DNA of 64,000 bases, taken from NCBI GenBank assembly GCA_034718535.1, contig JAYEMX010000064.1, positions 4,328-68,327 on the forward strand, written 5' to 3'. Below, piece by piece: positions 6,339 to 62,247 of the stretch. Position 1 is the first letter of the stretch, and each line of letters starts with the position of its first letter. The position numbers and the translations under genes are program-made. Source of the stretch: Patescibacteria group bacterium (lineage in GTDB: Bacteria > Patescibacteriota > Microgenomatia > UBA1400 > CG1-02-47-37). Under the pieces are notes generated by a model, which worked only from the letters and a program-made list of their open reading frames with translations, ran no database searches and was not told where the DNA came from.

Positions 6339-6402
6339 TTAAGGTTCGGAATAAAAGGTTACGAACTCGAACTTTTTAAAGTTCGTAACCCTACAGAACC
6401 TT
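6339..6402. repeat. PAL element, composite: outer arms aaggttc/gaacctt enclose a perfect inner palindrome ggttacgaact...agttcgtaacc
   Basis: Fills the secY-adk spacer; ends 6 nt before the adk ATG. Confidence 0.6.
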
Positions 6403-6405
6403 TAT

Positions 6406-7680
6406 TTAGAGGAAACTGTCATAGTTTCGCATAATTAATTGAGATTCAAAGTTTTTACTAGTTTCAAGAATAACAGAAACAACGATTAAAATACCAGTAC
6501 CGCCAATAGTCATGGTGGTAATATTGGTTATATATCTGGCAATAGAAGGCAAAATAGCTATAAATCCTAAAAATAAAGCCCCGGCTAAAGTAATTCTGCT
6601 TAAAACATAAGAGAGATAGTCGGCAGTAGACTTGCCCGGTCTGATCCCGGGAATAAAGCCACCGTTTTTTTTGATGTCTTCGGAAATTTTATCCGGATTA
6701 AAAGTAACAGCAGTATAAAAATAAGTAAAAGCAATTACCAAGGTTAAATAAATAAGGTGGTAAGGAACTTTATTCGGATCAAAAAGGTTAACCAAACCAG
6801 TGGCAAAAGCAACTATTTTAGGGTTATTAACTTCGGTTAAAAATCTACCTAAAACAGATGGCATTAAAACCAAAGAAACGGCAAAAATAATCGGAATAAC
6901 TCCGGCTTGATTAACTCTTAAAGGTAGATGAGTTGATTGACCCGGTTGAGTACGACCACTAACTCTTCTGGCATAACGAACTTTAATTTGACGAGTAGCT
7001 TCATTAACATAAATAACTCCAGAGATAACCGCTAAGCTTAAAACAGTAAAAGTAATAATACTGGTAAAATTTAAGGTTTGACTAATTGAAGAGGTTTGAA
7101 GTAAAGAAACTGGAAGACGACCAACAATACCGGCAAAAATCAATAAGGAAATTCCATTACCAATGCCATATTCTGTAAGGAGTTCACCCAGCCACATTAA
7201 TAAAACCGTACCGGCCACCATAGTAATAACCGTACTAATGGCAAATATGGGGCTTGATAAAGATATTATTTGTTGGTTTTTTAGTAAGGCAACCATACCA
7301 ATACTTTGAATAGCGGCTAAAGGAATAGATAATATTCTAGTCCATTGATTAATTTTTTCTCGACCATACTCACCTTCTTTGCTGATTTCTTCAAGCTTGG
7401 GAAAGATCATGGTAAGAAGGTTAAAAACAATTGAGGCATTAATGTAAGGGCCTAATCCCAAAGCCATAACTGAAAAATTAGCTAAGGTGCCACCGGAAAA
7501 AATATCTAAAAGACCTAAAAGTTCACTGGAGCCAAAAAGTTGTTTTAAAGCGCTAAGATTAACACCGGGAACCGGAATGTGGGCAATAAAACGAAAAATA
7601 ATAAAAATAAAAAGAGTGATTAATATTTTTTTTCTTAAATCTTTAATTTTAAATATATTTAAAATCGGTTGAATATTCAT
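6406..7680 (-). CDS. secY: Preprotein translocase subunit SecY
   Basis: 10-TM SecY family similarity; spc-operon position. Confidence 0.92.
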
Positions 7681-7694
7681 TTAGATAATGAACC

Positions 7695-8369
7695 TTAGGT
7701 TATTTTTTGTGATGATTTTTTCTTTTTCTTTGATGCTCCCGAAGTGCCTTTTAAGGTGACACCTTCCGGCTTCGCCGTCCCGACTCGAGATTCTCTCGTG
7801 TCTCCTGTTAAGGTCTCACCTTTTCTTCGAGGGTGAACTTTTTTCTTTTTCTTTTTGGGAGCATGTTTTTCTTTTAAGGTCTCACCTTTTCTTCGAGGGT
7901 GAACTTTTTTCTTTTTGGGAGTGATAGATGTTATTTTGCCACCAGCTTTTTTAATTTTTTTAGCGGCTGATTTTGAAACAGGCAGAGCAACATTTAAAGC
8001 AACTTTAAGATCACCATCTCCCAAGATTTTTACTGGCAAACCTTTAACTTTGACCGGTAAAATTTTGTTTTTGATTAAAGTTTTAACAGAAACAGTTTGG
8101 TTTTTCTTAAAACCGGCTAAGTGTTTTAGGTTTATAATGATTGGCTTTACCTTAACCGATTTATTTTTAAGCTTTCCGCGTAACATGGGAATTCTTCTGA
8201 TTAAGCTTTTTCTCATTGGTGTGCCTTCAAAGTAAAGAGGGACTTTACCTCTGGCTTTTTGACCTTTGGCTCCACGACCGGAAGTATGACCACCTTTACC
8301 AGAACCATAACCACGACCGACTCTTTTTTTAGATTTGGTTTTTGTTTTTGTGAGGGTGTTTAATGACAT
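7695..8369 (-). CDS. rplO: 50S ribosomal protein L15 with a Lys-rich C-terminal extension of about 75 aa
   Basis: L15 core (GRGYGSGKGGHTSGRGAKGQKAR), then a tail containing duplicated KKKKVHPRRKGETL. Confidence 0.85.
   Translation of the reverse strand: MSLNTLTKTKTKSKKRVGRGYGSGKGGHTSGRGAKGQKARGKVPLYFEGTPMRKSLIRRIPMLRGKLKNKSVKVKPIIINLKHLAGFKKNQTVSVKTLIKNKILPVKVKGLPVKILGDGDLKVALNVALPVSKSAAKKIKKAGGKITSITPKKKKVHPRRKGETLKEKHAPKKKKKKVHPRRKGETLTGDTRESRVGTAKPEGVTLKGTSGASKKKKKSSQKIT
7819..7920. repeat. Direct tandem repeat of about 50 bp (2 copies) inside the rplO 3' extension
   Basis: aaggtctcaccttttcttcgagggtgaactttttt... appears twice in tandem. Confidence 0.7.
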
Positions 8370-8385
8370 ATTGTCTCCTTAATTA

Positions 8386-8874
8386 TCAGTTTTTTCTTGG
8401 CTGAAGTTGTTTTAATGCTTTAATGGTGCAGTAAACGTTTGAGGCTTTGTTTCTGGTTCCAAGGACTTTACTGGAAATATTTTTGACTCCGGCGGCTTCC
8501 ATAACCGATCGAACAGCTCCACCCGCAATAAGACCACTACCTTTTGGAGCCGGTTTGAGCATGACTTTAGCGGCACCAAATTTAACTAAAATATCGTGAG
8601 GAATGGTACCTTTTCTTATGGGTACTTTAATAAGATTTTTTTTAGCTCTTCTAATGCCTTTTTTGATTGAGGAGAGAACATCCGGAGCTTTACCCAAACC
8701 AACTCCAACTCTACCTTTTTTATCTCCAACAACCATTAGAACGGAAAAACCGATTTGATTACCACCTTTGGTTTTTTTGGAAACACGATTAACTTGAATA
8801 ACTTTTTCATCAAATTCTTTGTCTTTTCGATATCTGTTTTGATTTCTGGTATTTCTTGGCATTGGTTTGTTCAT
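8386..8874 (-). CDS. rpsE: 30S ribosomal protein S5
   Basis: S5 family similarity; directly abuts rplO with no L30 gene between. Confidence 0.92.
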
Positions 8875-8875
8875 A

Positions 8876-9226
8876 TTAAAATTTTAAACCGGCTTTTCTG
8901 GCGGCCTCCGCTAAAGCTTTAACACGACCATGATATTTATATGAGCCACGATCAAAAGCTACTTTATTAATTTTTTTGAGTTTGGCTTTTTTAGCAATAG
9001 TTTCACCAATATTTTTAGCTAACTCTACTTTAGTTTTTTTCTTTGGATCAAGATTTTTACTATTAGCATTAACTAAAGTTACTCCTTTGATATCGTCGAT
9101 AATTTGAGCAGAGGTGTATTTATTGGATCTAAAAACAGTTAACCTCGGTCTTTTTTGATTGGTAGTTAAACTAGCTCTGGTTCTGATTTTTCTTTTGGTT
9201 TTTAAATTTTTGTATCTATTAATCAT
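8876..9226 (-). CDS. rplR: 50S ribosomal protein L18
   Basis: L18 family similarity. Confidence 0.9.
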
Positions 9227-9228
9227 AT

Positions 9229-9777
9229 TTAAACTTCAGCGGCCTTAGCGGCTTTACCTGGTTTTAATTTAACAACCTCGTCTTGATATCTGATACCTTT
9301 GCCTTTATAGGGATCGGGTTTTTTAAATTCTCTGATTTTGGCTGCAACTTGACCAACCAACTGCTTATCCGGACCCGAAATTATAATGGTTTTATTGTCT
9401 TTAAGTTCTACTTTAATCGAATCCGGAGCTTGGTAAATAATCGGATGAGAAAAACCAAGGGATAATTTGATAGCCTGGTCTTTGGTTTCAACTCTAAAAC
9501 CAGTACCTTCGAGTTTAAGAGTTTTAGAATAACCTTTAATAACTCCTTCAACCATATTAAAAAGCAGGCTTCTGACTAAACCATGAAAGGCCTTAGTTTG
9601 ATTTGTTGGTTTTTTTACGGAAACTGAGGCAATATTGTCTTTAAGAGTTACTTTGATTCCCGTCGGAATATTTTGAGTTAAAGTAACACCTTTTGAAGAA
9701 ACCGTCAAAAGCTTGTCTTTAATATCTAAAGTAACTTCTTTTGGGATAATAACTGGTTGATTGCCGATTCTAGACAT
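9229..9777 (-). CDS. rplF: 50S ribosomal protein L6
   Basis: L6 family similarity (two alpha/beta repeats). Confidence 0.9.
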
Positions 9778-9778
9778 A

Positions 9779-10183
9779 TTAATTTACTTTTAAAAGAACC
9801 TCTCCTCCCAGATTATTTTTTATGGCTTGTTTAGCTTCCATAACACCCTTTGAAGTTGATAATATAACCATACCCCTACCTCTTATATAAACCGGAAGTT
9901 CTTTGATGTTAGCATAAATTCTGACTCCAGGTTTGGAAATTCTTTTTATTTGATTAATGGCTGATTTTTTGTGAATGTATTTTAGAGTAACTTTTAAGGT
10001 TTTTTGAGGAGCTTTATTTTCCAGTTTATAGTCTTTAATGTAACCTTTGTTTTTTAAAATTTTAAGAATACTTTCTTTTAGAATTGAATTGGGAATAGAA
10101 ACAGTTTTATGTTTAACTAATTTGGCATTTCTAATTCTGGTTAATAAGTCTGCAATTGGATCTGATAACATAATTTTTACCAA
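9779..10183 (-). CDS. rpsH: 30S ribosomal protein S8
   Basis: S8 family similarity ([13 protein letters not shown]). Confidence 0.92.
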
Positions 10184-10362
10184 CTGGCTTTGGTAACTCC
10201 TGGTAATTCGCCTTTTTGGGCTAATTTTCTAAAACATAATCTACAAAGTCCAAAGTGTCTGATATAAGCTCTTGGTCGACCACAGAGCTGACAACGATTT
10301 TTTTTCCTTGAAGAAAACTTGGGTTTTCTTTTTTGTTTAGCAAAGTATTTAACTTTTGACAT
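10177..10362 (-). CDS. rpsN: 30S ribosomal protein S14, type Z (zinc-binding)
   Basis: 61 aa with CxxC...CxxC. Confidence 0.9.
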
Positions 10363-10376
10363 ATGGTTGTTTTATA

Positions 10377-10922
10377 TTATTTTATTTTTTGAAAAGGCAT
10401 ACCGAAAAGCTCCAGTAGCCTTAAGGCAATCTTGTTATTATCGGTATTAGTAACAAAATTTATTTGCAGGCCTCGAATAGTGTCGATTGTATCATAATCG
10501 ACCTCTTGAAAGACAGTTTGATCATTTAATCCTATCGAATAGTTGCCTCGACCATCAAAAGAACTTTTGGAAACACCTTGAAAGTCTCTAACCCTTGGAA
10601 GAACAATTGATACAAATTTGTCAAAAAATTCATACATTTTTTTTCTTCTTAAAGTAACCTTAACTCCAATTGGGTCGTTTTTTCTAATTTTAAAGGCGGC
10701 TTCAGCCATTCTAGCTCTGGTAATGATGGCTTTTTGACCAGCGATAAGGCTAATATAGTCAGAGACTTTTTTGACTATACCTTTATCTCCGGCTCCTTCC
10801 TTTAAGCCAACATTAATAATAATTTTGGTAAGCCTTGGAACAGCCAAATCATTAGTTAAATTAAATTCTTTTTTTATGGTTTTGACTATTTGTTTTTGGT
10901 ATTTTTCTTTTAATCTATTCAT
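10377..10922 (-). CDS. rplE: 50S ribosomal protein L5
   Basis: L5 family similarity. Confidence 0.92.
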   Translation of the reverse strand: MNRLKEKYQKQIVKTIKKEFNLTNDLAVPRLTKIIINVGLKEGAGDKGIVKKVSDYISLIAGQKAIITRARMAEAAFKIRKNDPIGVKVTLRRKKMYEFFDKFVSIVLPRVRDFQGVSKSSFDGRGNYSIGLNDQTVFQEVDYDTIDTIRGLQINFVTNTDNNKIALRLLELFGMPFQKIK

Positions 10923-10928
10923 AATATT

Positions 10929-10976
10929 GTTAAGGTTCGGAACTAGAACTTCGGAAAGTTCACGAACCTTAGGTTA
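10929..10976. repeat. PAL element, canonical 48-mer gttaaggttcggaactagaacttcggaaagttcacgaaccttaggtta
   Basis: Identical to the copies at 12539 and 13606 (the 13606 copy lacks the 3' ggtta); ends 6 nt from the rplE ATG. Confidence 0.75.
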
Positions 10977-10982
10977 TATTTT

Positions 10983-11291
10983 TTATGATATATTTTGATG
11001 GCATTTTTTACAAATTCTAATTTTCTTTTTACCTTGGCCTTGATAACCCACTCTGGTAATTTTCTTACACTTTGGACAAATTAAAGCAACTTTTGAAACA
11101 TAAATCGGTTTAACCAGATCAATAATGCCACCTGGTTTTGATTCGCCTTGTGCCTTAAGGTGTTTTTTGTAGACATTGATCCCTGGAACTAAAACCATGT
11201 TTTTTTTGGGAAAGATTTTTTCAATTTTACCGGTTTTACCTTTATCTTTACCAAGAGTAACTTTGATGGTGTCGTTTACTTTTAATTTCAT
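10983..11291 (-). CDS. rplX: 50S ribosomal protein L24
   Basis: KOW-domain L24 family. Confidence 0.9.
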
Positions 11292-11662
11292 AATACCTCC
11301 GGTGCCTGAGAAGCAATTTTATTATAGCCAAGTTCTTTAATTTCTCTGGCTATCGGTCCAAAAATTCTAGTACCTTTTGGTTTTTTGTTTTCAATGTTTT
11401 CTAAAATAATAGCGGCATTATCGTCAAAACGAATATAGGAACCATCTTTTCTCGCAGTTTCTTTTTTAGTTCTAACAATGACTGCTTTAACTACTTCTCC
11501 GGACTTTATTTGAGCATGGGGTTGGGATTGAATAACAGAAGCAGTAACAATATCTCCCAAATGACCAAAACGTTTTTTTGAACCACCATGGACTAAGATA
11601 ACCCGTAGTTTTTTACCTCCGGAATTATCAGCAACTTTTAAGGTTGATCTTAATTGAATCAT
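11288..11662 (-). CDS. rplN: 50S ribosomal protein L14; start set at the internal Met MIQL
   Basis: L14 family similarity. Confidence 0.92.
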
Positions 11663-11880
11663 ATAATTTCCCAACGTTTTTTCTTACTAATCGGCTTGGA
11701 TTCTTGAATAATAACTTTATCTCCCGGTTTTAGATTAGATTTTTGATTGTGAACCAAGTAGTTTTTTCTCTTGGTGATGATTTTTTTGTAAACGGGATGA
11801 GCCCATCTTCGGATAACTTGAACTTTAGCTGTTTTTTGCATTTTGACACTGATAACAGTGGCGGTTAGTTTTTTTTTCAT
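11659..11880 (-). CDS. rpsQ: 30S ribosomal protein S17
   Basis: S17 family similarity. Confidence 0.9.
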
Positions 11881-11890
11881 AAAATAATGT

Positions 11891-11929
11891 GAAGGTTACG
11901 AACTCGAACTTCTCAAAGTTCGTAACCTT
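11891..11929. repeat. PAL element variant B (aaggttacgaact...agttcgtaacctt, 13-bp stem); overlaps the last 11 codons and stop of rpmC
   Basis: Palindrome read directly; the rpmC stop TAA lies inside the gtaacc arm. Confidence 0.65.
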
Positions 11930-12120
11930 GATTTCTCACCCATCAAAGTTTTGATGAGAGCAATTTGATAACGGGTTTTTTTAAGAATTGAGGTGTTTTT
12001 TAAAGTATTGGTTTTTATTTTTAGTTTTTGGTCGATTAAATCTTTTTTAAACTTAAGAAGATCGGTAGTTAATTCTTTGGTAGTTTTAGCTTGAAAAGCT
12101 TTTTTATCTTTTAAATTCAT
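11896..12120 (-). CDS. rpmC: 50S ribosomal protein L29 with a 3' extension ([12 protein letters not shown]) encoded by a PAL repeat
   Basis: L29 family similarity; the tail is colinear with the repeat. Confidence 0.85.
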
Positions 12121-12530
12121 CTTATGATTTTTTTTATAAATTTGGTTTTCATGGGTAATTTTTGAGTAGCAAGTCTAAATGATTCGCGGGCAATACTTTC
12201 CTCTACTCCGGCCAGTTCAAAAATAACCCGACCCGGTTTGATAACACAAACATAGCCTTCAATTTCTCCTTTACCTCCACCCATACGGACACCTGCGCCT
12301 TTTTTAGTATAGGTTTTATCGGGGAAAACCCTAATCCAAAGTTTTCCAGTTCTTTTAGTATAATGGGTGATGGCTTTTCTGGCGGCTTCAATTTGTCTAT
12401 TAGTCATCCAACCCCTACCTATAGCCTTTAAGCCATACTCTCCAAAAGAGATTTTTGAACCAAGACTGGCATTGCCCTTCATAGAGCCTCTAAAATGCTT
12501 GCGGTATTTCATTCTTTTTGGTTGTAACAT
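12117..12530 (-). CDS. rplP: 50S ribosomal protein L16
   Basis: L16 family similarity. Confidence 0.92.
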
Positions 12531-12538
12531 AGTATAAT

Positions 12539-12586
12539 GTTAAGGTTCGGAACTAGAACTTCGGAAAGTTCACGAACCTTAGGTTA
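12539..12586. repeat. PAL element, canonical 48-mer; its 3' end supplies the last codons and TAA stop of rpsC and its 5' end lies 8 nt from the rplP ATG
   Basis: Identical 48-mer to the copy at 10929. Confidence 0.75.
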
Positions 12587-13235
12587 TTTCAAGTTCTCCT
12601 TTATAAACCCATACTTTGATGCCAACATAACCAAATTTGGTAAAAGCCGGTTTTTCAAAATAATCGATGTCTGCTCTGATAGTACTAAGAGGAACACTAC
12701 CTTTTGAGTATTTTTCGGTTCGACTGATTTCAGCTCCATTAATACGACCGGCCAAAGCAATTTTTATACCCTTGGCTCCACCAGTCATAGCTCTTTCCAA
12801 AGCTTGAGATACAGCTCTTCTGTGAGGATAACGTTTAGACATTTGATCGGCAATTCTCAAAGCAATTAACCTGGATGACAAATCCGGTTTCTTAACTTCA
12901 ACCACTTCCAGTTCAAATTTAGGAGCTTTTCCTTTCTTTTTATTTAATTCCAGTTTCTTAAGTAAAATCTTCTTTAACTCTTCGATTCCCGAACCGCCAC
13001 GGCCGATGACTACACCTGGTCTTGAAACATGAAGAGTAAATTTAATAGTGTTAATGGAGCGTTCGATTTTTACTTCGGTAATACCGGCAAGTTCAAGTTT
13101 TTTAAATAAAAATTTTCTTAATTGAATGTCTTCCAGTAAGAATTTTTTGTAATCTTCTTTAGTGGCAAACCAGTTACTTGACCAAGTATAAAGAGGTCCT
13201 ATTCTAAATGATTTTGGATGTACTTTTTGTCCCAT
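12579..13235 (-). CDS. rpsC: 30S ribosomal protein S3
   Basis: KH and S3-C domains. Confidence 0.92.
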   Translation of the reverse strand: MGQKVHPKSFRIGPLYTWSSNWFATKEDYKKFLLEDIQLRKFLFKKLELAGITEVKIERSINTIKFTLHVSRPGVVIGRGGSGIEELKKILLKKLELNKKKGKAPKFELEVVEVKKPDLSSRLIALRIADQMSKRYPHRRAVSQALERAMTGGAKGIKIALAGRINGAEISRTEKYSKGSVPLSTIRADIDYFEKPAFTKFGYVGIKVWVYKGELEIT

Positions 13236-13236
13236 A

Positions 13237-13602
13237 TTATTTTTTCTCTTTAGGCTTGATAGTTTTTTTTGGTTTATTTGACTTTAAAATTACTTTTATA
13301 TGACTGGTTCTTTTAAAAATTGAGTGAGCTCGACCGCGAGAAACCGGATTCCAGCGTTTGTAAGTAGCTCCTTCGTTTACTTCAATTGATTGAATTTCAA
13401 GAGAATCTTTGTTTAAATTTAAATTATTAACAGCATTGGCAATAGCCTGTTTGATGGTTTTCAAAAGTGGCTTGGCCGCTCTTTTTCTTAAGTAAGTTAA
13501 AGTATTAACGGCTTCGGTCAGACTCATGTTTCTGACTAAATCAGCCACTAGTCTAATTTTTCTTGGGCTGGTTCTGATAAATTTTGATTCTGCTTTGATC
13601 AT
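13237..13602 (-). CDS. rplV: 50S ribosomal protein L22
   Basis: L22 family similarity. Confidence 0.9.
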   Translation of the reverse strand: MIKAESKFIRTSPRKIRLVADLVRNMSLTEAVNTLTYLRKRAAKPLLKTIKQAIANAVNNLNLNKDSLEIQSIEVNEGATYKRWNPVSRGRAHSIFKRTSHIKVILKSNKPKKTIKPKEKK

Positions 13603-13605
13603 AAA

Positions 13606-13648
13606 GTTAAGGTTCGGAACTAGAACTTCGGAAAGTTCACGAACCTTA
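13606..13648. repeat. PAL element, canonical copy, 3 nt from the rplV ATG
   Basis: Identical to the 10929 and 12539 copies over the first 43 nt; lacks the 3' ggtta. Confidence 0.75.
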
Positions 13649-13656
13649 TGTTGTTT

Positions 13657-13941
13657 TTAAGTTTTAGTAATAGTTCTTTTAACCATTTTTCCGTGACCCC
13701 TAAAGGTACGGGTTGGAGCAAATTCTCCTAAACGATGACCAACCATGGCTTCATTAATAAAAACTTCTAAAAATTTATTGCCATTGTGAACCAGAAAAGT
13801 TTGACCGACAAAGTCTGGAGAGATTTGACTGGCTCTTGACCAGGTTTTAATAGGCTCTTTTTTGCCATCAGCTTTCATTTTAGCGATCTTTTTTAATAAT
13901 CGTTGATCTACGTATGGGCCTTTTTTATTTGATCTTGACAT
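13657..13941 (-). CDS. rpsS: 30S ribosomal protein S19
   Basis: S19 family similarity ([16 protein letters not shown]). Confidence 0.92.
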
Positions 13942-13976
13942 ATATTTTGTTAATCACTCCGGAGTGATTAAAGTTT

Positions 13977-14807
13977 TTATTTTTTATTTCGTTTTTTAAT
14001 AATAAATTTATTTGAATATTTTTTCGGTTTTCTAGTTTTTTTACCAAGGGTCTTTTTACCCCAAGGGCTTAATGGTGATGGCATACCAATACCACTTCGA
14101 CCCTCTCCTCCTCCGTGGGGGTGAGAACCGGGATGTTGAGCCGTACCCCGAACAGCAGGTCTAAATCCTAAGTGGCGCTTTCTTCCAGCTTTGCCTAGTT
14201 TTATATTTTTAACATCTTGATTGCCAACCTCGCCGATTGTAGCATAACATTCCAAGGAAATTAAACGGACTTCTCCGGAAGGAAGTTTGACTATGGCTTT
14301 TTTATCTTTACCCTGAAGAATGGCGGCAGTTCCGGCCGATCTAACCATTTGACCTCCCTTACCTGGGGTAATTTCTAAATTGTGAATTAAACTTCCAACT
14401 GGAATTTTACTTAAAGGACAAGCATTTCCGGGCTTGATCGGAGCTTTTTCTCCAGAAATGATAGGTTGATTAATTTTTAGACCTTTTGGAGCCAGAATAT
14501 ATCTTTTTGCTCCGTCAATATAATGGAGTAAAGCAATGTTGGCACTTCTATTTGGATCGTATTCTATGGTAGCCACCTTAGCTTGGATATCTCTTTTATC
14601 TCTCTTAAAATCAATGACACGATATAGTCTTTTATGGCGACCACCTCGATGACGAACAGAAATTTTACCACTACTGTTTCTGCCAGCCTTGTAGTTAATT
14701 ATTTTGGTGAGGCTTTTTTGTGGTTTAGTGGTGGTGATTTCACTGCGAATAATATCTCGTCGATGACGTCTGCCCGGAGTAGTTGCTTTATAGGTTTTTA
14801 TTGCCAT
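13977..14807 (-). CDS. rplB: 50S ribosomal protein L2
   Basis: L2 family similarity (GGGEGR motif region). Confidence 0.92.
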
Positions 14808-14809
14808 AT

Positions 14810-15211
14810 TTATTTACCTTGAGTCCTTTGTTCTTTTCTTTTACCCAAACCCAATGACTTTTTTTTCTTGGATTTAGATTTTGGGGTTAATTTTACAGTA
14901 GGTTTTTTAATAGTGGTTTTTTCTTCCGGCAATTTAAAATACTCAATTACTTGGCCTGGTTTTAAAGTAATAATGGCTTTTTTCTGATCTGAAGTTTTTT
15001 TAGCAATTTTACTTTTACCCGATCTTTTAACTTTACCTGCCTTTTTTACAGTCCTAACTTTGATAACATTGACCTTGAAAAGTTCTTCGACAGCATGAGC
15101 AATGGCATTTTTACCGGCTGATTTTTTAACAAAAAAAGTAAATTGGCTTTTTTTGGCAAGTTTAAAAGATTTTTCAGTGATGGATGGTTTTAAAATAATA
15201 TCAAGAGACAT
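14810..15211 (-). CDS. rplW: 50S ribosomal protein L23 with a Lys-rich C-terminal tail of about 35 aa; start set at the internal Met MSLDI
   Basis: L23 core ...[14 protein letters not shown] followed by K-rich tail. Confidence 0.8.
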
Positions 15212-15827
15212 GGTGTTCCTCAAAAGTTTTAAGTGATTTTTTGGTAAAGATAATTTGATTGGCATTTAAAAGATGATAGGTGTTTAGATTTTTGGCGGCG
15301 GTTAAACTAATATAAGTTAAGTTGTTAGTGGCTCTTTTTATAGATGTAAGGTTGGTAACAAGAATAATTTTTTGGGGAGATTTAAAAAGTTTGGTAAAAA
15401 TTTTATGGAATTTTTTAGTTTTGGGTTTTAGTTTTTCTAAACCGGTTATAGCCATAATTTTTTTGTCTTTTAATTGCTTAGTTAGGGCACTAAATAAGCT
15501 GGCACGTTTCATTTTCTTTGACAAAGTCAGTTTGTAATTTTGTTCACCGGTTGGCCCATGAGCTTTAGCTCCACCAACAAAAATGGGGGCATTTTTACTA
15601 CCGTGACGAGCTCGACCAGTGCCTTTTTGACGCCAAACTTTCTTTTTGGTAACTTTAATTTCTCCTCTCGACTTAGTTTTGGCAGAAGCCTGACGTTGAT
15701 TGGATAGATAAACCTTAATAGCTTGAGCCATTAAAGGTTGATTAATTTTAGCCCCAAAAATTTCTTTTTTAAGAGTAGTTTTTGTGGTTTTTTTGGTAGT
15801 GATGTTGTAGGTATTTATTGATGGCAT
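15201..15827 (-). CDS. rplD: 50S ribosomal protein L4
   Basis: L4 family similarity. Confidence 0.9.
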   Translation of the reverse strand: MPSINTYNITTKKTTKTTLKKEIFGAKINQPLMAQAIKVYLSNQRQASAKTKSRGEIKVTKKKVWRQKGTGRARHGSKNAPIFVGGAKAHGPTGEQNYKLTLSKKMKRASLFSALTKQLKDKKIMAITGLEKLKPKTKKFHKIFTKLFKSPQKIILVTNLTSIKRATNNLTYISLTAAKNLNTYHLLNANQIIFTKKSLKTFEEHHVS

Positions 15828-15830
15828 AGA

Positions 15831-16547
15831 TTACTGGGTATTTTTCTTTGGTTTAGGTTTATCATTTTTGGTTTTAGCCTTAGGTTTTTGATAAAGCTTG
15901 ATAGGGTTTTTTGAGTTTCCATATTTAGTGATTTTAAGTAAGGATTTAGTGTGGCCCGGAACCGTACCTTTGATGGTAAGAATATTAGTTTGATGATTAA
16001 CTTCTAAAACTTGAAGATTTTTAACTGTAACCGTATCTGTGCCAAATCTACCCGGCATTTTTTTACCCTTCCAAACACGACCCGGATCTGTTCCTGGACC
16101 AATAGAACCAATAGACCTTGGTCTGTCTGATTGTCCATGGGTTCTTGGTCCACCGGCAAAACCCCAACGCTTCATAACTCCGGCAAAACCTCTGCCTTTT
16201 GAGGTTCCGGAAATTTTGACTTTATCGTCCGGTTTTAAAGTATCCGAAACTTTAATTTGATCACCTACTTTTAAAGTTGGTTTTTCCAATACTTTAATTT
16301 CTCTGATAAATTTTGGAGGAGTTTTTAATTTAGCTTTTTTTAAGTGTTTTAAAAGCGCTTTTGATAAAGATTTTTTTGATTTTTTACCAAAAGCACATTG
16401 AACTGACCAATAACCGTCTTTTTTAAAAGATTTTATTTGAGTGACAGTTAGGGGGTTGGCCATGATTTTAGTTATTACCAAACGATTACCTTTATCATCA
16501 AAGGTTTGGGCAGTCTTTAATTTAGTGGCAAAAAATGTGTTAATCAT
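15831..16547 (-). CDS. rplC: 50S ribosomal protein L3
   Basis: L3 family similarity. Confidence 0.9.
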   Translation of the reverse strand: MINTFFATKLKTAQTFDDKGNRLVITKIMANPLTVTQIKSFKKDGYWSVQCAFGKKSKKSLSKALLKHLKKAKLKTPPKFIREIKVLEKPTLKVGDQIKVSDTLKPDDKVKISGTSKGRGFAGVMKRWGFAGGPRTHGQSDRPRSIGSIGPGTDPGRVWKGKKMPGRFGTDTVTVKNLQVLEVNHQTNILTIKGTVPGHTKSLLKITKYGNSKNPIKLYQKPKAKTKNDKPKPKKNTQ

Positions 16548-16553
16548 GGGGTT

Positions 16554-16862
16554 TTACATTCTAATTTCAATACCAACTCCGGCGGGCAGTTCCAGGTGCA
16601 TTAAACTATCTATAGTTTTGTCTGTAGAATCGATTATATCTACCAATCTTTTATGGGTAAGTAGTTGAAAGTGTTCTCTAGCATCTTTGTCCGCATGTGG
16701 GCTAGTGGTAACACAAACCAGTTTTCTTTTGGTTGGCAGAGGAATGGGTCCAATAACTTTAGCTCCGGTCGAAAGAGCGGTATCAAGTATTTTTTGGCAA
16801 CACTCATCTATGATCCTATGATCATAAGATTTTAATCTGATTCTGATTCTACCTTTTGGCAT
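16554..16862 (-). CDS. rpsJ: 30S ribosomal protein S10; start at the internal MPKGRIRIRL, not the extended ORF-track start
   Basis: S10 family similarity; upstream extension has no homology and covers leader repeats. Confidence 0.88.
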   Translation of the reverse strand: MPKGRIRIRLKSYDHRIIDECCQKILDTALSTGAKVIGPIPLPTKRKLVCVTTSPHADKDAREHFQLLTHKRLVDIIDSTDKTIDSLMHLELPAGVGIEIRM

Positions 16863-16940
16863 AATATAATAGTGACACGGTGACACATAGTGACACGGTT
16901 TTATCAAGATAAGAAGAGCCCGAAGGCTCGTCTTATTCAA
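16863..16940 (-). promoter_or_regulatory. Candidate S10-operon leader: 10-bp stem hairpin with UUCG tetraloop (aagacgagcc-uucg-ggcucuucuu), then three direct GUGUCAC repeats running up to the rpsJ AUG
   Basis: Read on the minus strand; in other bacteria this position holds the L4-responsive S10 leader. Confidence 0.35.
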
Positions 16941-16952
16941 ATTTTTAATTAT

Positions 16953-16996
16953 GTTAAGGTTCGGAACTTTTGAACACCTAAGAGTTCACGAACCTT
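16953..16996. repeat. PAL element variant, just 3' of the tuf stop
   Basis: gttaaggttcggaac...gttcacgaacctt arms. Confidence 0.65.
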
Positions 16997-17005
16997 GGTT
17001 TATAT

Positions 17006-18184
17006 TTATTTTAAGATCTTGGTAATAACACCGGCTCCGACAGTAAGTCCACCTTCACGAATAGCAAAGCGAAGACCTTCTTCTAAAGCAACTGGTTGAA
17101 TGAGTTTAGCGGTCATTTTAGCGCTGTCACCAGGCATAACCATTTCAACTCCCTTTGGTAAAATAACATCTCCGGTTACATCAGTAGTTCTGATATAAAA
17201 CTGAGGTTTGTATCCAGTAAAAAACGGAGTGTGGCGCCCACCTTCTTCTTTTGAAAGAATATAAATTTCCGCTTCAAACTCAGTAAAGGCTTTAACTGAA
17301 CCCGGTTTAGACAAAACCTGGCCCCTTTCAACGTCATCTTTTTCGACTCCGCGAAGAAGAATACCAACATTGTCACCAGCTTGACCATCTTCGAGTTGTT
17401 TTCTAAACATCTCGACTCCAGTAACAGTGGTTTTTTTAACCTTTTTTAAACCAATAATTTCGATTTCTTCACCGACTTTAATTTTACCCCTATCGATTCT
17501 ACCGGTAACGACTGTGCCTCTGCCTTTAATAGAAAAGACATCTTCAATCGCCATTAAAAAGGGTTTATCCAAATCTCTTTTTGGATCAGGAATATATTCA
17601 TCTAAAGCTTTCATGAGCTCTTCAATGGGTTTCTCAGCCTCGGCATCACCTTTCAAGGCTTTTAAGGCGCTACCTTTGATTATAGGAACATCTTTGCCTG
17701 GAAATTCGTATTTGGTTAAAAGTTCTCTGATTTCTTCTTCAACCAAATCAATCATTTCTTTGTCGTCTACCATGTCAACTTTGTTAAGGAAAACTACTAA
17801 AGCTGGAACATTAACTTGTTTGGCTAAAAGTAAATGTTCTCTGGTTTGAGGCATGGGGCCATCAGTAGCAGCGACGACTAAAATAGCACCGTCCATTTGA
17901 GCGGCACCGGTAATCATATTTTTAATGTAGTCTTTATGTCCCGGGCAATCGATATGAGCATAATGACGCTTATCTGTTTCATACTCTAAGTGAGAAATAG
18001 AAATGGTAATACCACGCTCTTTTTCTTCCGGAGAGTTATCAATCTCGTCAAATTTCATAGCATCTGCCATGTTCTTCTTTGCCAAATATTGAGTAATTGC
18101 GGCAGACAAAGTTGTCTTACCGTGATCGACATGACCAATGGTCCCGACGTTAAGATGGGGTTTGGTCCTTTTAAATGTTGCCAT
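17006..18184 (-). CDS. tuf: Elongation factor Tu
   Basis: [18 protein letters not shown] motifs; SD aaggagg upstream. Confidence 0.95.
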
Positions 18185-18247
18185 ACGGCCTCCTTTTTGT
18201 TTAATAGCTAGTTATTTATTCCTAGCAGTTTATATTTTAGCATAAAG

Positions 18248-18284
18248 TTAAGATTCCGAACACTGTTAGGTTGCGGAACCTTAT
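18248..18284. repeat. PAL element variant (gattccgaac...gttgcggaacc) in the fusA-tuf spacer
   Basis: Shares the ggttc(c)gaac core inverted arms. Confidence 0.55.
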
Positions 18285-20512: not shown

Positions 20513-20546
20513 ATAGAGGTATTATATGAAAAAAAAGATTATTTGT
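20513..20546 (-). promoter_or_regulatory. Candidate sigma-70-like promoter TAGACA-N17-TATAAT reading toward fusA
   Basis: Hexamers and spacing read on the minus strand; lies between REP-2 and the fusA leader hairpin. Confidence 0.3.
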
Positions 20547-20574
20547 CTAGAGGAAACCTGTAAAATCCAGGTGG

Positions 20575-35702: not shown

Positions 35703-36845
35703 TTATTGTTTTTGCAATTTTCCTACTGTGATAATAACATCATATTCATTATCATCAGTCAAGGGTGTTTGGTTTTTAATGAGATCATAATCTGAATTTA
35801 GAGATCTTTCTATAATTGTCCAAACAGTTTCCGGAGTATTTGTTTTTAACTGAACAGAGGTTTTTTGGTGATCAAGTTCATCGGCGTTGTCAGCTATGAT
35901 TTCCACAAAGTCTTTGGCCTCTAAAATATCCTTGACTGTGCCAGCTACACCCCTACCTCCAGTACCATTTAGGACTAAAATTTTGTAGTCTGATAGAGTT
36001 ACTTCTATCTCCGGTTCTGGCGAGGGTGAAGGCGAGGGTGAAGGAGTTGGGTTTGGAGAAGCTACTATGAGGGGTGAAGGCGAGGGTTTTAGGTTGTTTT
36101 GCAGAGCATTTCTTTGAACTAAAATACCACCAGTGATGAGGGCGCCTAGGGTTAAGGTGACAATAAAAGCAATGATGAGAGTTTTGTTCGGTTTTGGTTT
36201 TAATTTCTTAGGTTCCGAACTATCCTTCACTTCGTTGCGGACCGCTGGAAGTTCGGAACTTTGAGACTTTGATGGTTTAAGTTTGGTGGGTGATAGTTTT
36301 TTAAGAGAAAGGTTAAGAACTTTTTCGTCTCTACCTTTTAAGTCTTTTTTTAAAGCAAGGCCGATGACTGGATTTGGATTGCGAATTTTTGAGATGGTTT
36401 TTGGTTCGATGGCTTGAAGTTTTAAGTTGGCATCAACAAGAGCTTGAGAGATAAGGGTAAAGATTGATTTGACTGGAGCAAAGGCAATAATTTGTTTGTC
36501 TGATTGAGTTTTTCGACCAGTTTCCTTAAAATCCCAGTTTTCATTTTCTAGAATTTCTGGAATTTCGGGTTTGATTTTTTCTTCGATTAACTTTCGCTCA
36601 TCTTTAACTTTAGTGTTAAAGGGGATGTTTAAACTTAAGACATATGATAATTCATCTGAAAGTAAAATTCTGATTGATTTAGTTTTAAGTTGTTTTTTTA
36701 CCTGAACAAAGGCTTTATCCAAAGAGTCTTTACTCCAAGTAATTTCATCTGACTTAATGATGGCAGGGGCCTTACCTGTCTTAACTAGAACAGCTTTAAG
36801 TTTGTCTTTGGTTAGATAGATGATGGGAATTTTTTTGTTAAACAT
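35703..36845 (-). CDS. Hypothetical membrane protein with a PSPSP linker and a C-terminal LytR_C-like domain; carries an in-frame PAL repeat
   Basis: TM LIIAFIVTLTLGALITGGILV; (SP)n linker; C-terminal segment resembles the LytR/CpsA/Psr C-terminal domain. Confidence 0.35.
   Translation of the reverse strand: MFNKKIPIIYLTKDKLKAVLVKTGKAPAIIKSDEITWSKDSLDKAFVQVKKQLKTKSIRILLSDELSYVLSLNIPFNTKVKDERKLIEEKIKPEIPEILENENWDFKETGRKTQSDKQIIAFAPVKSIFTLISQALVDANLKLQAIEPKTISKIRNPNPVIGLALKKDLKGRDEKVLNLSLKKLSPTKLKPSKSQSSELPAVRNEVKDSSEPKKLKPKPNKTLIIAFIVTLTLGALITGGILVQRNALQNNLKPSPSPLIVASPNPTPSPSPSPSPEPEIEVTLSDYKILVLNGTGGRGVAGTVKDILEAKDFVEIIADNADELDHQKTSVQLKTNTPETVWTIIERSLNSDYDLIKNQTPLTDDNEYDVIITVGKLQKQ
36209..36261. 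repeat. PAL element variant (ggttccgaac...gttcggaac) inside the CDS at 35703..36845
   Basis: Inverted arms with a 30-nt spacer, in-frame. Confidence 0.5.
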
Positions 36846-37334: not shown

Positions 37335-38030
37335 ATGATTATTAGGATGCCATCAAAGAATAGGAATAAAGTTTATAAAGAAAACGGATATTATCATGTT
37401 TATAATCGTGGGGTTGATAAACGAAAAATTTTTATGGATGAACAAGATTATGCTGTTTTTTTGCATTTACTAAAGTATTATCTTTCTCCACCCAGCAAAG
37501 AAGACAAACATCCTTTGTCGGATACTTCTACAGCTGTGATTAGGCCTAGGCCAATTGAAAATTTACATCAAGAGGTTAATTTACTTGCTTATTGTTTGAT
37601 GCCAAACCATTTTCATTTATTGATAAAACAAAAAAGTATTGATGGTATGACAAAACTAATTCATAAACTACTAACTATTTATTCAATGTATTTTAATAGG
37701 CGTCATAAACGTATTGGCCATTTGTTTCAAGGTTGTTATAAGGCAGTTTTAGCTGATAATGACGAGCAGGTTTTGCATCTATCTCGATATATACACCTTA
37801 ATCCAGTTAAGCTGACAGGGTCTGACCCTGTCAGGTGGCCATACTCAAGTTTGGCTTATTATTTAGGGGAGAAAACTGCTAAGTGGGTGAAACCTAAAGA
37901 AATACTTGAGTGTTTTGAAAAGATAGAAAAGAATAAACTAACAAATAAAAACTACAATTCTTATAAAGAATTTGTTTTTGACGATAAAAAAGATTCTAAA
38001 GAAACTGTTGGCAGGTTTTCTATTGATTGA
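37335..38030 (+). mobile_element. RAYT-type HUH tyrosine transposase (IS200/IS605 TnpA-like, Y1). The likely true start is MPSKN at 37347, matching the N-terminus of RAYT-2.
   Basis: YHVYNRG...LMPNHFHLL (HUH)...SRYIHLNPVK (catalytic Tyr); flanked by REP-1 copies and carrying one internally. Confidence 0.8.
37812..37834. repeat. REP-1 palindrome ctgacagggtctgaccctgtcag inside the RAYT-1 CDS, encoding LTGSDPVR
   Basis: Perfect palindrome, in-frame. Confidence 0.7.
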
Positions 38031-40837: not shown

Positions 40838-40859
40838 AAAGTAATTATATAATAATTTC

Positions 40860-40937
40860 AGGTTCCGAACTAAAATATCGGAAACCTGCCTGCCATGCCT
40901 ATCGGCAGGTAAACCGGCAAGGCAGGGTTCGGAACCT
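40860..40937. repeat. Long PAL variant: perfect outer arms aggttccgaac/gttcggaacct enclose a 55-nt GC-rich insert with nested inverted repeats (cctgcc...ggcagg)
   Basis: Read directly; lies in the rnj-ftsK spacer. Confidence 0.55.
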
Positions 40938-40942
40938 AAAAG

Positions 40943-54870: not shown

Positions 54871-55048
54871 CTTATACTTGAGGGTGTATACTGAATTTAA
54901 TGCCTTCAAAAAATGCTTTAAAAATCTATAAAGAAGATTCTTATTATCATATTTATAATCGAGGAGTGGCTAAGGCAAATATTTTTAAAGACAAAAAGGA
55001 TTATAAAGTTTTTCTTGATTATTTGAAAATATATTTATCTCCTGTCGA

Positions 55049-55071
55049 CCTACAAGGAGAGTCCTTGAAGG
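55049..55071. repeat. REP-2 copy inside the RAYT-2 CDS (encodes DLQGESLKV)
   Basis: cctacaaggagagtccttgaagg in-frame. Confidence 0.65.
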
Positions 55072-55352
55072 TTTCACCATCAAGAGAATTGAAAAATTAT
55101 TCAGATGAAATTATCTTGGTTGCTTATTGCTTAATGCCAAACCATTTTCACTTATTAATTCATCAAAAAAATAAGGATTCTATTAATTACTTTATGAGAT
55201 CTTTGGCTACAAAATATTCAAGATATTTTAATACTAGATATGATAGGGTTGGCCCATTATTTCAAGGTGTTTATAAAGCTGTTAAGGTTGACAATGAAGA
55301 TCAGTTGGTTTATTTGACTAAATATATTCATCGAAATCCTATTAATATCCTA

Positions 55353-55375
55353 CCTACGAGGAGAGTCCTTGTAGG
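55353..55375. repeat. REP-2 copy inside the RAYT-2 CDS (encodes LPTRRVLVGY), directly after the NPI(N) motif
   Basis: cctacgaggagagtccttgtagg in-frame. Confidence 0.65.
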
Positions 55376-55547
55376 TTATAAATACTCTAGTTATGGAAAT
55401 TACTTGGGATTATTTAAACAGGTCTGGGTAAAGCCAAATATGATTCTTGGATTGTTTTCTGCCTCTAATAAGTTATTTAGTTATAAAAGTTTTGTGGAAG
55501 AATTAGAAGAAGATTATAGTTCTATAAATAAAATTGTTCTTGATTAG

Positions 55548-59089: not shown

Positions 59090-59119
59090 TTGATAGAGCT
59101 ACAAGTAAAATGTTATGAT
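59090..59119 (+). promoter_or_regulatory. Candidate promoter TTGATA-N18-TATGAT in the divergent murJ/rpsT spacer; -10 ends 8 nt before the rpsT ATG, so a leaderless or short-leader mRNA is possible
   Basis: Hexamers read directly. Confidence 0.3.
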
Positions 59120-59126
59120 ACGGGCT

Positions 59127-59369
59127 ATGCCAATAATTAAATCAGCAAAAAAAAAGTTAAAACAAGATAAATTTCGAACGATAGTTAATCTTGTTTATCG
59201 AAACAAAATTAAGAAGACTTTAAAAGAGGCTCGAGAGAAAAAAACAAAAAAATCTTTAAAATCTGTTTATAGTGCTTTAGACCGCGGAGTTAAAAAAAAA
59301 GTGATTCATAAAAATAAAGCGGCTCGATTAAAATCTAGGTTGTCAAAACTGGTAAAGAATAAGGTATAA
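59127..59369 (+). CDS. rpsT: 30S ribosomal protein S20; start at MPIIKSAKKKL
   Basis: S20 N-terminal signature. Confidence 0.85.
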   Translation: MPIIKSAKKKLKQDKFRTIVNLVYRNKIKKTLKEAREKKTKKSLKSVYSALDRGVKKKVIHKNKAARLKSRLSKLVKNKV

Positions 59370-59378
59370 TGTCAGTTA

Positions 59379-59918
59379 ATGGCTGCCCAAAAAAAACAAA
59401 TTAATTTGCTCCCTAAGGATAAGTGGGAAGTTGGAATAGTCGGTAAACTGCTGAAGTGGGCTTTAAATATTGGACGCTATGTAGTGGTTTTTACAGAGTT
59501 GATTGTGATTTCCGCTTTTTTGTTTCGTTTTTCATTGGACAGAAAATTGACGGACCTTCGAAAAGAAATGAAACAGAAACAAGAAGTGGTAGTATTTTAT
59601 GAAGATTTTGAAAGTAGTTTTAGAAAAATTCAGAAACAGTTAGAAAATATAAAAGAAACTAATGCTTCCAGCGTTGATGTTGAGTCGATATTGTTAAATA
59701 TCAGTCAAATTACACCGATTGATACTGTTTATAGCAGGATTAATATTGTTGCGGAAGAAGTTTCTTTGGAGGGAGAAACTTTATCTGAAATTGGTTTGGC
59801 TACTTTGTTGGCAAAAGCTCAAGAAAATAAAAAATTCAGTGAAGTTGTTCTTGAAAGTGTAGCTTCGGCAACAGAAAAAAATCAAGTAATAAAATTTAGA
59901 ATGACTTTAGGTTTATGA
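59379..59918 (+). CDS. pilN: Type IV pilus assembly protein PilN-like
   Basis: N-terminal INLLP motif, single TM, coiled-coil periplasmic part. Confidence 0.65.
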   Translation: MAAQKKQINLLPKDKWEVGIVGKLLKWALNIGRYVVVFTELIVISAFLFRFSLDRKLTDLRKEMKQKQEVVVFYEDFESSFRKIQKQLENIKETNASSVDVESILLNISQITPIDTVYSRINIVAEEVSLEGETLSEIGLATLLAKAQENKKFSEVVLESVASATEKNQVIKFRMTLGL

Positions 59919-60556
59919 AATTTGGGAGCAGATTAAATACCAGCAGAGATTACAATAAATATATAAAAAGATTGCAACAATTGTCTTTAAATCCGGTGGC
60001 AAAAGTATCTGGAATTATCAGTTTAACAATTTTTACAGTGGCATTTTTTGGTATTTTTGCCATTTTACCGACTTTTAAAACAGTTGGTTCTTTGTCTAAA
60101 GAGATTAAAGATATTAAGGAAATTAATCAAAAACTTTCTTTAAAAATTAAGGCTCTGGGGAGTGCCGAAGATATTTATAGTCAAGTGGTAAATGATCTTG
60201 AGTTGGTTAATAAAATGCTACCTGAAACAGCAAGTTTTGATCGTTTGGTTTGGCAGATTGAATGGTTAGCGATGAATACCGAGATTGAATTATCATCAGC
60301 TAATTTTGGAGAATTCCAAATAGTAGGTCCGGAAATAATTGAAAATGATTTGGGTAAAATTGAAGTTGAGCTAACTTTAGTTGGTGGTTATTCACAAATA
60401 AAATATTTTGTTAAAAAATTAAATAGAATTGATAGATTGATTTCAATTAATGATGTTAGAATTGCCAATAAATCTTTTTTAAAAAAAGACAATGATGTTT
60501 CTGCCAACATTAAGTTTAATGCTTACTATTTAACTAGTGATATTAATAATTTATGA
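59915..60556 (+). CDS. pilO: Type IV pilus assembly protein PilO-like
   Basis: Short cytoplasmic N-terminus, TM, coiled coil; follows pilN with a 4-nt overlap. Confidence 0.5.
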   Translation: MKFGSRLNTSRDYNKYIKRLQQLSLNPVAKVSGIISLTIFTVAFFGIFAILPTFKTVGSLSKEIKDIKEINQKLSLKIKALGSAEDIYSQVVNDLELVNKMLPETASFDRLVWQIEWLAMNTEIELSSANFGEFQIVGPEIIENDLGKIEVELTLVGGYSQIKYFVKKLNRIDRLISINDVRIANKSFLKKDNDVSANIKFNAYYLTSDINNL

Positions 60557-60897
60557 TCAGTAAAATTTACGAAAATCAGTTAAAAAATCAATTATTTAAA
60601 TTGTCTCTTATGACAATAATAACGGTAATTATCTGGATCGGATTTGCCACTTATGAAAGTTTATCTAAAAGTAAAATTGGTAAAACAACTCATTTACAAA
60701 TTAAACCCTTGACGGCAAGTCTTGATTTTGACACAATAAAAGATATTAAAAGTCGGGAAAAAATTACCAAAGCAGACTGGGATTCTTTGGTTCCGCAACT
60801 GCCAATGAATTTGGTATTGCCTGATATACCGGGAACCGAATCCGGTCAAATTAATAATAATTTGACAGCCAGTAATAGCGGAGAATTGGAAAAGTAG
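60553..60897 (+). CDS. Hypothetical small membrane protein, coupled to pilO
   Basis: TM LSLMTIITVIIWIGFAT. Confidence 0.3.
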   Translation: MISKIYENQLKNQLFKLSLMTIITVIIWIGFATYESLSKSKIGKTTHLQIKPLTASLDFDTIKDIKSREKITKADWDSLVPQLPMNLVLPDIPGTESGQINNNLTASNSGELEK

Positions 60898-60904
60898 CTA
60901 ATTT

Positions 60905-62239: not shown

Positions 62240-62247
62240 CTATTTAT

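Follow-up and report, generated by a model that had tools for sequence, protein, structure and literature searches.

The 64-kb window analysed here, by which we mean the whole stretch of contig JAYEMX010000064.1 presented above (~35% GC, with nearly all genes on the minus strand), contains a family of short palindromic elements that are, in our judgement, likely to be non-autonomous mobile palindromes of the repetitive extragenic palindrome (REP)/REPIN type, associated with REP-associated tyrosine transposase (RAYT) genes in the genome of an uncultured, ultra-small Microgenomates bacterium of the candidate phyla radiation (CPR), this placement of the host being based on SecY-anchored loci. A sequence-only reading had reported at least seven copies with inverted arms within the ribosomal gene cluster (6339, 10929, 11891, 12539, 13606, 16953 and 18248) and two related copies outside it (36209 and 40860). 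All nine are real, and the genes named around them were correctly assigned, as judged from NCBIfam matches that cover adk, secY, rplE, rplX, rpsQ, rpmC, rplP, rpsC, rplV, rpsS, rpsJ, tuf, fusA, rpsG and rpsL. The rpoBC-str-S10-spc-alpha supercluster extends over window positions 476-28620, and its str/S10/spc cluster holds seven copies and a remnant. In total, the window carries nine copies and this one remnant, with palindromes of 34-80 nt, and eight of the copies are extragenic:

6341-6402, minus strand: compound copy in the secY-adk spacer, with outer arms AAGGTTCGGAA...CAGAACCTT
7684-7697, minus strand: remnant at the rplO-secY junction, reading ...AAATAACC-UAAGGUUC-AUUAUCUAA-AUG
10929-10976, minus strand: A-type copy in the rplX-rplE spacer, the stem ending 9 nt before the rplE ATG
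11892-11929, minus strand: B-type copy between rpmC and rpsQ
12539-12586, minus strand: A-type copy between rpsC and rplP
13606-13648, minus strand: A-type copy between rpsS and rplV, the stem ending 6 nt before the rplV ATG
16956-16996, minus strand: copy with A-type arms and a diverged interior in the tuf-rpsJ spacer
18250-18282, minus strand: diverged copy in the fusA-tuf spacer, AAGGUUCCG...CGGAAUCUU
36209-36262, minus strand: long variant in frame inside the 380-residue open reading frame (ORF) 35703-36845 (LytR_C domain), encoding ...SSELPAVRNEVKDSSEP...
40859-40938, minus strand: long variant in the RNase J-ftsK spacer

The family stands well clear of chance expectation. The core GGTTCGGAAC, searched with up to one mismatch, occurs 12 times in the window where 2.3 occurrences are expected, a count reached by none of 100 shuffled sequences, and searches with 12-nt arms at up to two mismatches returned 27 matches (9.4 expected) and 21 matches (5.5 expected). 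All arm and core matches with no or one mismatch fall in the copies listed above, as inverted pairs, and the 12-nt arm searches revealed no stray single arms in the window. Single copies of the REP form (AGGTTNNNAACCT) gave one match in the window, which is chance level. A repeat finder grouped the copies at 6355, 10932, 11892, 12542, 13609, 16956 and 18250. The near-identity that had been claimed for three of them holds, the 48-mers at 10929 and 12539 being the same and the 13606 copy agreeing with them over its first 43 nt, and near-identical copies have their flanks in common as well.

The earlier description of the copies needs amending in places. That at 6339 is compound, with a complete B-type element (GGTTACGAAC..GTTCGTAACC, 6357-6390) nested within its outer arms; the rpmC frame enters the copy at 11891 and stops at a UAA in its 3' arm; and the true rpsJ start lies ~80-90 nt downstream of the copy at 16953. 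The 36209 copy lies in frame inside a coding sequence. Two genes take their stop codon from a UAAGG of an element: rpsC ends on the UAA of such a motif at the 5' end of the 12539 copy, just short of the stem, and rplO on that in the 7684-7697 remnant, which keeps its 5' flank and the start of its 5' arm, matching those of the 10929 and 12539 copies, and has lost the rest. On the 3' side of the 18250-18282 copy comes AACUUUAUG, with an ATG that opens an ORF of just 11 codons, followed by tuf's own Shine-Dalgarno (SD) sequence. The interior of the 40859-40938 copy contains a nested CCTGCC...GGCAGG palindrome (40885-40926), members of whose family (CCCTGCCTGCGCAGGCAGGG) are also found in a closely related genome (L001, below) and nested in elements of three other loci (L081, L097 and L098).

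The anatomy of the elements is that of two inverted arms set apart by an interior. The family has arms of the form AAGGTT(C/A)(G/C)GAAC...GTTC..AACCTT; its ends are the inverted arms (T)AAGGTT-NNN-GAAC and GTTC-NNN-AACCTT(A), each of which holds the greater part of a mini-palindrome of 15-19 nt, AAGGTT-NNN-AACCTT. The interior varies: most often it is a GAACTT-N4-AAGTTC hairpin carrying a duplicated bulge of 6 nt, and in some copies there are one or two other hairpins. A typical copy reads, in mRNA sense, UAAGGUUCG-U-GAACUU-UCCG-AAGUUC-UAGUUC-CGAACCUUAAC. Three arm subtypes were distinguished:

Subtype A: GGTTCGGAAC / GTTCACGAACC
Subtype B: GGTTACGAAC / GTTCGTAACC
Subtype C: GGTTCCGAAC / GTTCGGAACC

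Subtypes B and C are told apart by one A-T/C-G pair, at which the change is fully compensated (six sequences versus six, none broken). Pairing of the arms gives the short forms (34-35 nt) a stem of 13-14 bp that has a single bulge. In the long variants the arms are retained and one or two other hairpins take the place of the interior. The alternative fold, of a kind that the sequence-only reading had thought possible, has an 8-bp outer and a 6-bp inner stem, the 6-nt bulge arising from a tandem GAACUY duplication. The RNA has a minimum free energy between -14 and -23 kcal/mol in all of the nine copies but the long one at 40860, for which it is -43.8 kcal/mol. Comparing hairpin stability between strands (G-U versus A-C) revealed a bias that is inconsistent among copies and does not separate constraint at the RNA level from constraint at the DNA level.

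Evidence of mobility comes from related genomes. The closest relative, a metagenome-assembled genome (MAG) of Ca. Beckwithbacteria (L001), has a SecY 92% identical to that of the host and belongs to the same genus-level lineage; two further relatives, L002 and L003, show 79% and 75% SecY identity, and the remainder are near 60%. Window genes were mapped onto the L001, L002 and L003 loci and every junction was checked, the L003 locus ending before the rpsM-rpsK and rplQ-rplM junctions. Against L001, two junctions are shared (one with an inverted core), four copies are present in the window only and three in L001 only, and no copies were found in the relatives beyond these three:

rpsC-rplP: copy in the window; copy in L001 with the asymmetric core inverted; empty in L002 and L003
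rpmC-rpsQ: copy in the window; copy in L001, likewise oriented and identical at 33 of 34 nt; empty in L002 and L003
rpsS-rplV: copy in the window; empty in L001 (5-nt spacer); unrelated hairpin in L002; empty in L003
rplX-rplE: copy in the window; empty in L001, L002 and L003
secY-adk: copy in the window; empty in L001 (4-nt spacer); decayed copy in L002
tuf-rpsJ: copy in the window; none in L001, L002 and L003; C-type copy in L088
rplB-rpsS: unrelated palindrome in the window; copy in L001; none in L002 and L003
rpsM-rpsK: none in the window; copy in L001; none in L002
rplQ-rplM: none in the window; copy in L001, in frame in the rplQ tail; none in L002
rplE-rpsN: none in the window or L001; copy in L002; unrelated hairpin in L003
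rplC tail: none in the window; unrelated CACTCC palindrome and no copy in L001; copy in L002

The empty L001 junctions have spacers of 0-5 nt or overlapping genes, and the rplQ C-terminus of L001 carries the same long variant as the 36209 copy of the window. Presence and absence at orthologous junctions, shared flanks, nesting, and copies in unrelated operons and coding sequences all agree with the recent spread that the sequence-only reading had proposed, and the comparison of orthologous spacers that it had called for favours a mobile family over ancient regulatory hairpins. Other palindromes occur at some of the same sites. At rplB-rpsS, where L001 has a GGTTACG element, the window has a different, perfect palindrome, AATCACTCCGGAGTGATT (13952-13969); members of the CACTCC(C)GGAGTG family are found in L001 too, in its tuf-rpsJ spacer and its rplC tail.

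The family is not confined to this lineage. Scanning metagenome contigs with a pattern covering all short element subtypes identified 18 contigs, of 34-45% GC and from several samples, that carry it; three of these are orthologous ribosomal clusters. A further example is an rpmH-rnpA-yidD-yidC-jag operon (L082), in which three successive junctions between rnpA and jag each carry an element and one more follows the RNase H gene. Identical 34-mers are found in different organisms, and some copies on metagenome contigs are nested in other copies. In-frame copies were found in at least 12 ORFs, among them window ORF 35703-36845, the rplQ tail of L001 and the rplC tail of L002; they add recurrent peptides, one of them of 12 residues, and the 36209 copy is a case of this kind. 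A scan of viral contigs for the element returned no matches, and thus gave no sign of a phage vector.

What links the elements to a transposase is the sequence that surrounds RAYT-like genes. The window itself has two such genes, the plus-strand ORFs 37335-38030 and 54900-55547, both of which match Pfam Y1_Tnp above cutoff. Each has a palindrome family of its own, found on its flanks, in frame within it and dispersed in operon spacers, which indicates that systems of the REP/RAYT type exist in this genome, where they serve other palindromes. The first gene is flanked by ACAGGGTC-N-GACCCTGT hairpins, one of them in frame (sites 37297, 37815 and 38030), with a dispersed copy at 4477, the map/infA junction. 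The second gene shares 49% identity with the first; copies of CCTACAAGGAGAGTCCTTGTAGG flank it and two more lie in frame within it. Its palindromes are at 54848, 55049, 55353 and 55550, with dispersed copies in the rpsG-fusA spacer (20575) and near the window start (~447).

A third RAYT-like gene, at 8471-9109 of locus L093, adjoins a C-type element; copies of TTCCAGGTTC(G/C)GAACCTGGAA stand on either side of it and a further one lies within it. Its homologues, some of which JGI calls RayT, were retrieved with their contigs, and these proteins too match Pfam Y1_Tnp. Palindromes surround RAYT-like genes in this and further loci as follows:

L093/L105: flanking TTCCAGGTTCGGAACCTGGAA, with an internal copy
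L099, same MAG as L002: flanking ATTCCAGGTTACGAACCTGGAAT
L103, same MAG as L001: flanking AGGTTCGTAACCT and internal TAAGGTTACGAACCTAA
L101, same MAG as L001: flanking TTCCAGGTACGGAACCTGGAA
L108, another genome: ATTTAAGGTTCCGAACCTTAAAT three times
L109, another genome: ATAGGTTCGTAACCTAT plus a dispersed copy, with many C-type elements nearby

The palindrome of L108, TTAAGGTTCCGAACCTTAA, is exactly what joining both termini of a dispersed element would give; 14 of its 19 nt are retained in each dispersed arm, and the arms stand in inverted order. Such an arm pair could be read as a doublet of truncated REPs or as one REP whose loop has expanded. The triplets of RAYT flanks and of dispersed arms suggest a match too, in a sample that is too small and too mixed to carry weight. 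In the RAYT genes of L093, L099, L101, L103 and L108, the cognate palindrome occupies an upstream, an in-frame (~codon 60-70) and a downstream site, and no internal copy was detected in the RAYT gene of L109. We know of no earlier description of an internal REP in a RAYT gene, and its presence there may be autoregulatory. The RAYT genes lie in a conserved synteny, PMT-X-RAYT-LytR-UvrD, corresponding to the pattern of vertical, housekeeping-like inheritance reported for RAYTs (PMC5581495). Window positions 59115-63702 (S20, PilN, PilO and four more genes) are collinear with L105 1956-6449, and the L105 RAYT starts 3.55 kb past this collinear stretch. Given the collinearity of these last 4.6 kb, the GGTTCG family may have its cognate RAYT a short way beyond the right end of the window.

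In the mechanism we propose, a RAYT-type HUH/Y1 transposase would recognise single-stranded DNA hairpins of this kind, cut them and re-insert them in trans, so that the elements would probably owe their spread to a gene which, in related genomes, is syntenic and vertically inherited and is flanked and interrupted by the same mini-palindrome. Copies would persist where harm is small, either in the stop-to-start spacers of operons, where they can even provide a UAA stop, or in frame in tolerant parts of proteins. In the mRNA, a junction copy would form a self-contained 13-14 bp hairpin that probably affects message stability, termination and re-initiation as a side effect, as the REPs of Escherichia coli do. 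The stretch between the upstream stop and a junction copy measures 0-15 nt, and 6-13 nt separate the end of its stem from the next AUG. In E. coli, an upstream gene is translated less when a REP lies less than 16 nt from its stop codon (PMC12306157), and by analogy a comparable translation-lowering side effect of the present elements is plausible.

A number of observations weigh against this interpretation. The only NCBIfam match of the RAYT-like proteins is NF047646 (REP-associated tyrosine transposase), at 40-54 bits against a cutoff of 80, and the cognate RAYT of the host is absent from the window, its presence being deduced from synteny only. Palindromes that flank RAYT genes have a collapsed 15-23 nt form and the dispersed ones a form of 34-80 nt, the link between the two being a common core of 11-19 nt; subtype matches between RAYT flanks and dispersed arms are few, and genomes carry mixtures. 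An alignment of 29 element copies revealed no GTAG or CGTC head at either end, as classical REPs carry, while the unrelated CCTACAAGG...CCTTGTAGG family of the window does contain GTAG. Flanks of junction copies (5' AAAUAAC, 3' AAC-AUUAU) follow the mRNA sense and not the orientation of the core. The ribosomal cluster is enriched, with seven copies and the remnant at ~34 junctions against one at ~36 junctions elsewhere in the window. A purely selfish model predicts neither this enrichment nor the behaviour of the flanks. The copy count refers to the 64-kb window. Membership in the classical REP family is incomplete, the head being missing, the RAYT-flanking unit collapsed, the RAYTs distant and the copies counted over the window.

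A rival explanation is a functional intercistronic RNA module, composed of a stop codon, a hairpin and an AU-rich leader and selected in operons poor in SD sequences, which would have been co-opted or evolved for ribosomal protein expression and would favour termination-reinitiation, shield the start region or preserve processed 5' or 3' ends. The narrow placement of the copies between stop and start speaks for such a module, as do a 3' linker AAC(A/U)UUAU and a 5' flank AAAUAAC that keep to the mRNA sense in either orientation of the core, the unrelated hairpins that occupy the same junctions (rplB-rpsS in the window, rpsS-rplV in L002, rplE-rpsN in L003), the concentration of copies in the ribosomal cluster, the presence of an RNase J gene in the window and the effect of REPs within 15 nt of a stop in E. 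coli mentioned above; the hairpin is also self-contained and leaves little structure in the AUG region, the folding computed locally at start codons being in itself uninformative. However, the orthologous junctions of close relatives do with spacers of 0-5 nt and no hairpin, the core is inverted at the orthologous rpsC-rplP site of L001, many copies lie in frame inside ORFs or have no start codon after them, those at 18248 and 16953 do not adjoin real starts, SD motifs are rare anyway, and tight spacing is what any element landing in a very short spacer would show. We consider this explanation doubtful.

The same evidence bears on the proposal, made in the sequence-only reading, that the element doubles as a translation-initiation signal in genes that have no SD sequence. 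The gaps to the ATG that it gave are correct by its own boundaries (adk 6, rplE 6, rplP 8 and rplV 3 nt), and tuf does carry AAGGAGG. Nevertheless, an SD-like motif precedes only 12 of the 70 window genes, so that its absence from adk, rplE, rplP and rplV is unremarkable; with the empty orthologous junctions, the inverted core and the copies in ORFs or away from starts, the claim is not supported, and a replacement of the SD by the element was rejected on the same rarity of SD-like motifs throughout the window. Start codons in the window are usually preceded by A/U-rich sequence, tuf being among the few genes with a strong AAGGAGG.

A reading that joins the two ideas would have RAYT-spread palindromes domesticated as cassettes at operon junctions (UAA, hairpin, AAC-AUUAU leader), where they would set the efficiency of termination-reinitiation and thereby tune the stoichiometry of ribosomal proteins in SD-poor CPR genomes. 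It would explain the flanks that follow the mRNA sense, the replacement of one hairpin family by another at junctions and the concentration in translation operons; we nonetheless regard it as unlikely.

It is improbable, in our view, that the elements are transposable elements of the miniature inverted-repeat kind (MITEs), that is, deletion derivatives of a DDE-type insertion sequence moved via terminal inverted repeats with duplication of a TA or TTAA target. Their arms are conserved in the manner of terminal inverted repeats while the interior varies, insertions are nested, and the termini read TTAAGG...CCTTAA. Against this, the flanks of the 29 aligned copies show no consistent TA or TTAA duplication (position -3 is T in 6 of the 29 and position +3 is A in 19 of the 29), lengths of 34-80 nt fall below those usual for MITEs, no insertion sequence with matching ends occurs in the loci examined, and the same palindrome flanks Y1/RAYT genes.

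Two remaining explanations are very improbable. Ancient site-specific regulatory hairpins, such as autoregulation sites of ribosomal proteins, attenuators or terminators, would fit the placement in intercistronic spacers of the str/S10/spc operons and the stability of the stems, and are contradicted by orthologous positions that are not conserved even at 92% SecY identity, by the same sequence standing before unrelated genes, in other operons and inside ORFs, by a scan of the window against Rfam 15 that returned no matches at the gathering threshold, and by the lack of a U-tract. An over-represented 10-nt core acting genome-wide as a DNA-uptake-type or protein-binding signal, and often paired in inverted fashion by chance, would accord with a core that is short and conserved across genomes of differing GC, with arms that are each nearly palindromic (GTTCSGAAC), and with the PilN/PilO genes of the window, CPR bacteria possessing competence pili; it is hard to reconcile with a core that never stands single in the window, with the conservation of interior and flanks and with the RAYT association.

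Intrinsic termination was likewise considered for the elements and rejected, none of the copies being called terminator-like. In mRNA sense, the only terminator-like site in the intercistronic spacers of the cluster is an unrelated hairpin at 16916-16929. It is the conserved GAGCCUUCGGGCUC hairpin of the tuf-rpsJ leader (16860-16935), which has a U-rich tail, is also present in L002 and is followed by three GTGTCAC repeats just upstream of the true rpsJ ATG. A scan of the window for tRNAs gave no matches. The best sigma-70-like match of the cluster, TAGACA-17-TATAAT (11/12), falls in the rpsG-fusA spacer at 20521-20549, just downstream of a dispersed CCTACAAGG palindrome, and is a possible internal promoter for fusA-tuf. 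In addition, the C-terminal extension of rplO (7695-7920) consists of ~75 extra L15 residues made of repeats; it includes a 43-nt direct repeat (7808-7850 and 7874-7916) and a 72-nt unit (7752-7824) that is 96-97% identical to L001 sequences after rplV and after rplM and represents another mobile in-frame element, with AAGGT-NNN-ACCTT mini-palindromes.

Among known systems, the REP-like interpretation finds its closest counterpart in the REP/REPIN-RAYT systems of E. coli and Pseudomonas (PMC3116915, PMC5581495, PMC3479197), with which the present family shares short imperfect palindromes that recur in operon spacers, both intercistronic and 3', more than one RAYT/REP pair in a genome, and gain and loss between close relatives. 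REPs are stem-loop-forming palindromes of ~20-40 nt with many dispersed, mainly extragenic copies per genome. The family may also share with these systems a hairpin built of two inverted REP-like halves, as in REPINs, where a spacer lies between the two REPs (PMC3116915), and low-copy, syntenic and vertically inherited Y1/HUH genes that have the cognate palindrome on their flanks. It differs in lacking the GTAG/CGTC head (PMC3733652), in a dispersed form that is an expanded version of the RAYT-flanking mini-palindrome, in frequent in-frame insertion into coding sequence, including that inside a RAYT gene, and in a host with a CPR genome of roughly the 1-Mb class whose RAYT proteins are distant and under the NCBIfam cutoff. 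The palindromic elements of Rickettsia (RPEs; PMC10969869) are similar in residing in a reduced genome, in non-coding spacers as well, and in inserting in frame into unrelated protein genes to which they add a conserved peptide. This likeness is one of features, and a relationship in sequence is not expected. RPEs measure ~100-150 bp against 34-80 nt here and belong to Rickettsiales and not to CPR hosts; no transposase has been assigned to them, while the present elements point to a RAYT. Correia/NEMIS and ERIC MITEs (PMC10969869, PMC3184786) resemble the elements in their inverted-repeat termini, nested and truncated copies, insertion in operons and co-transcription as hairpins. Unlike them, the present elements are much shorter and have neither a target-site duplication nor, in the loci examined, a parental DDE insertion sequence.

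REP/REPIN-RAYT systems have been described mainly from Proteobacteria with roomy genomes, and our literature searches found no account of them in CPR/Patescibacteria. The family reported here occupies one of the most compact and conserved gene clusters, where it provides stop codons and lengthens ribosomal proteins, and it is sequence-identical across organisms of differing base composition. In practical terms, such repeats can break assemblies and mislead gene callers into false N-terminal extensions and C-terminal tails. They may also serve as a tractable marker of strain-level dynamics in uncultured CPR populations and as a natural test of how operon junctions tolerate hairpin insertion where SD sequences are not used, and the pairs of RAYT and REP in which the RAYT gene has a REP inside it would lend themselves to biochemical study.

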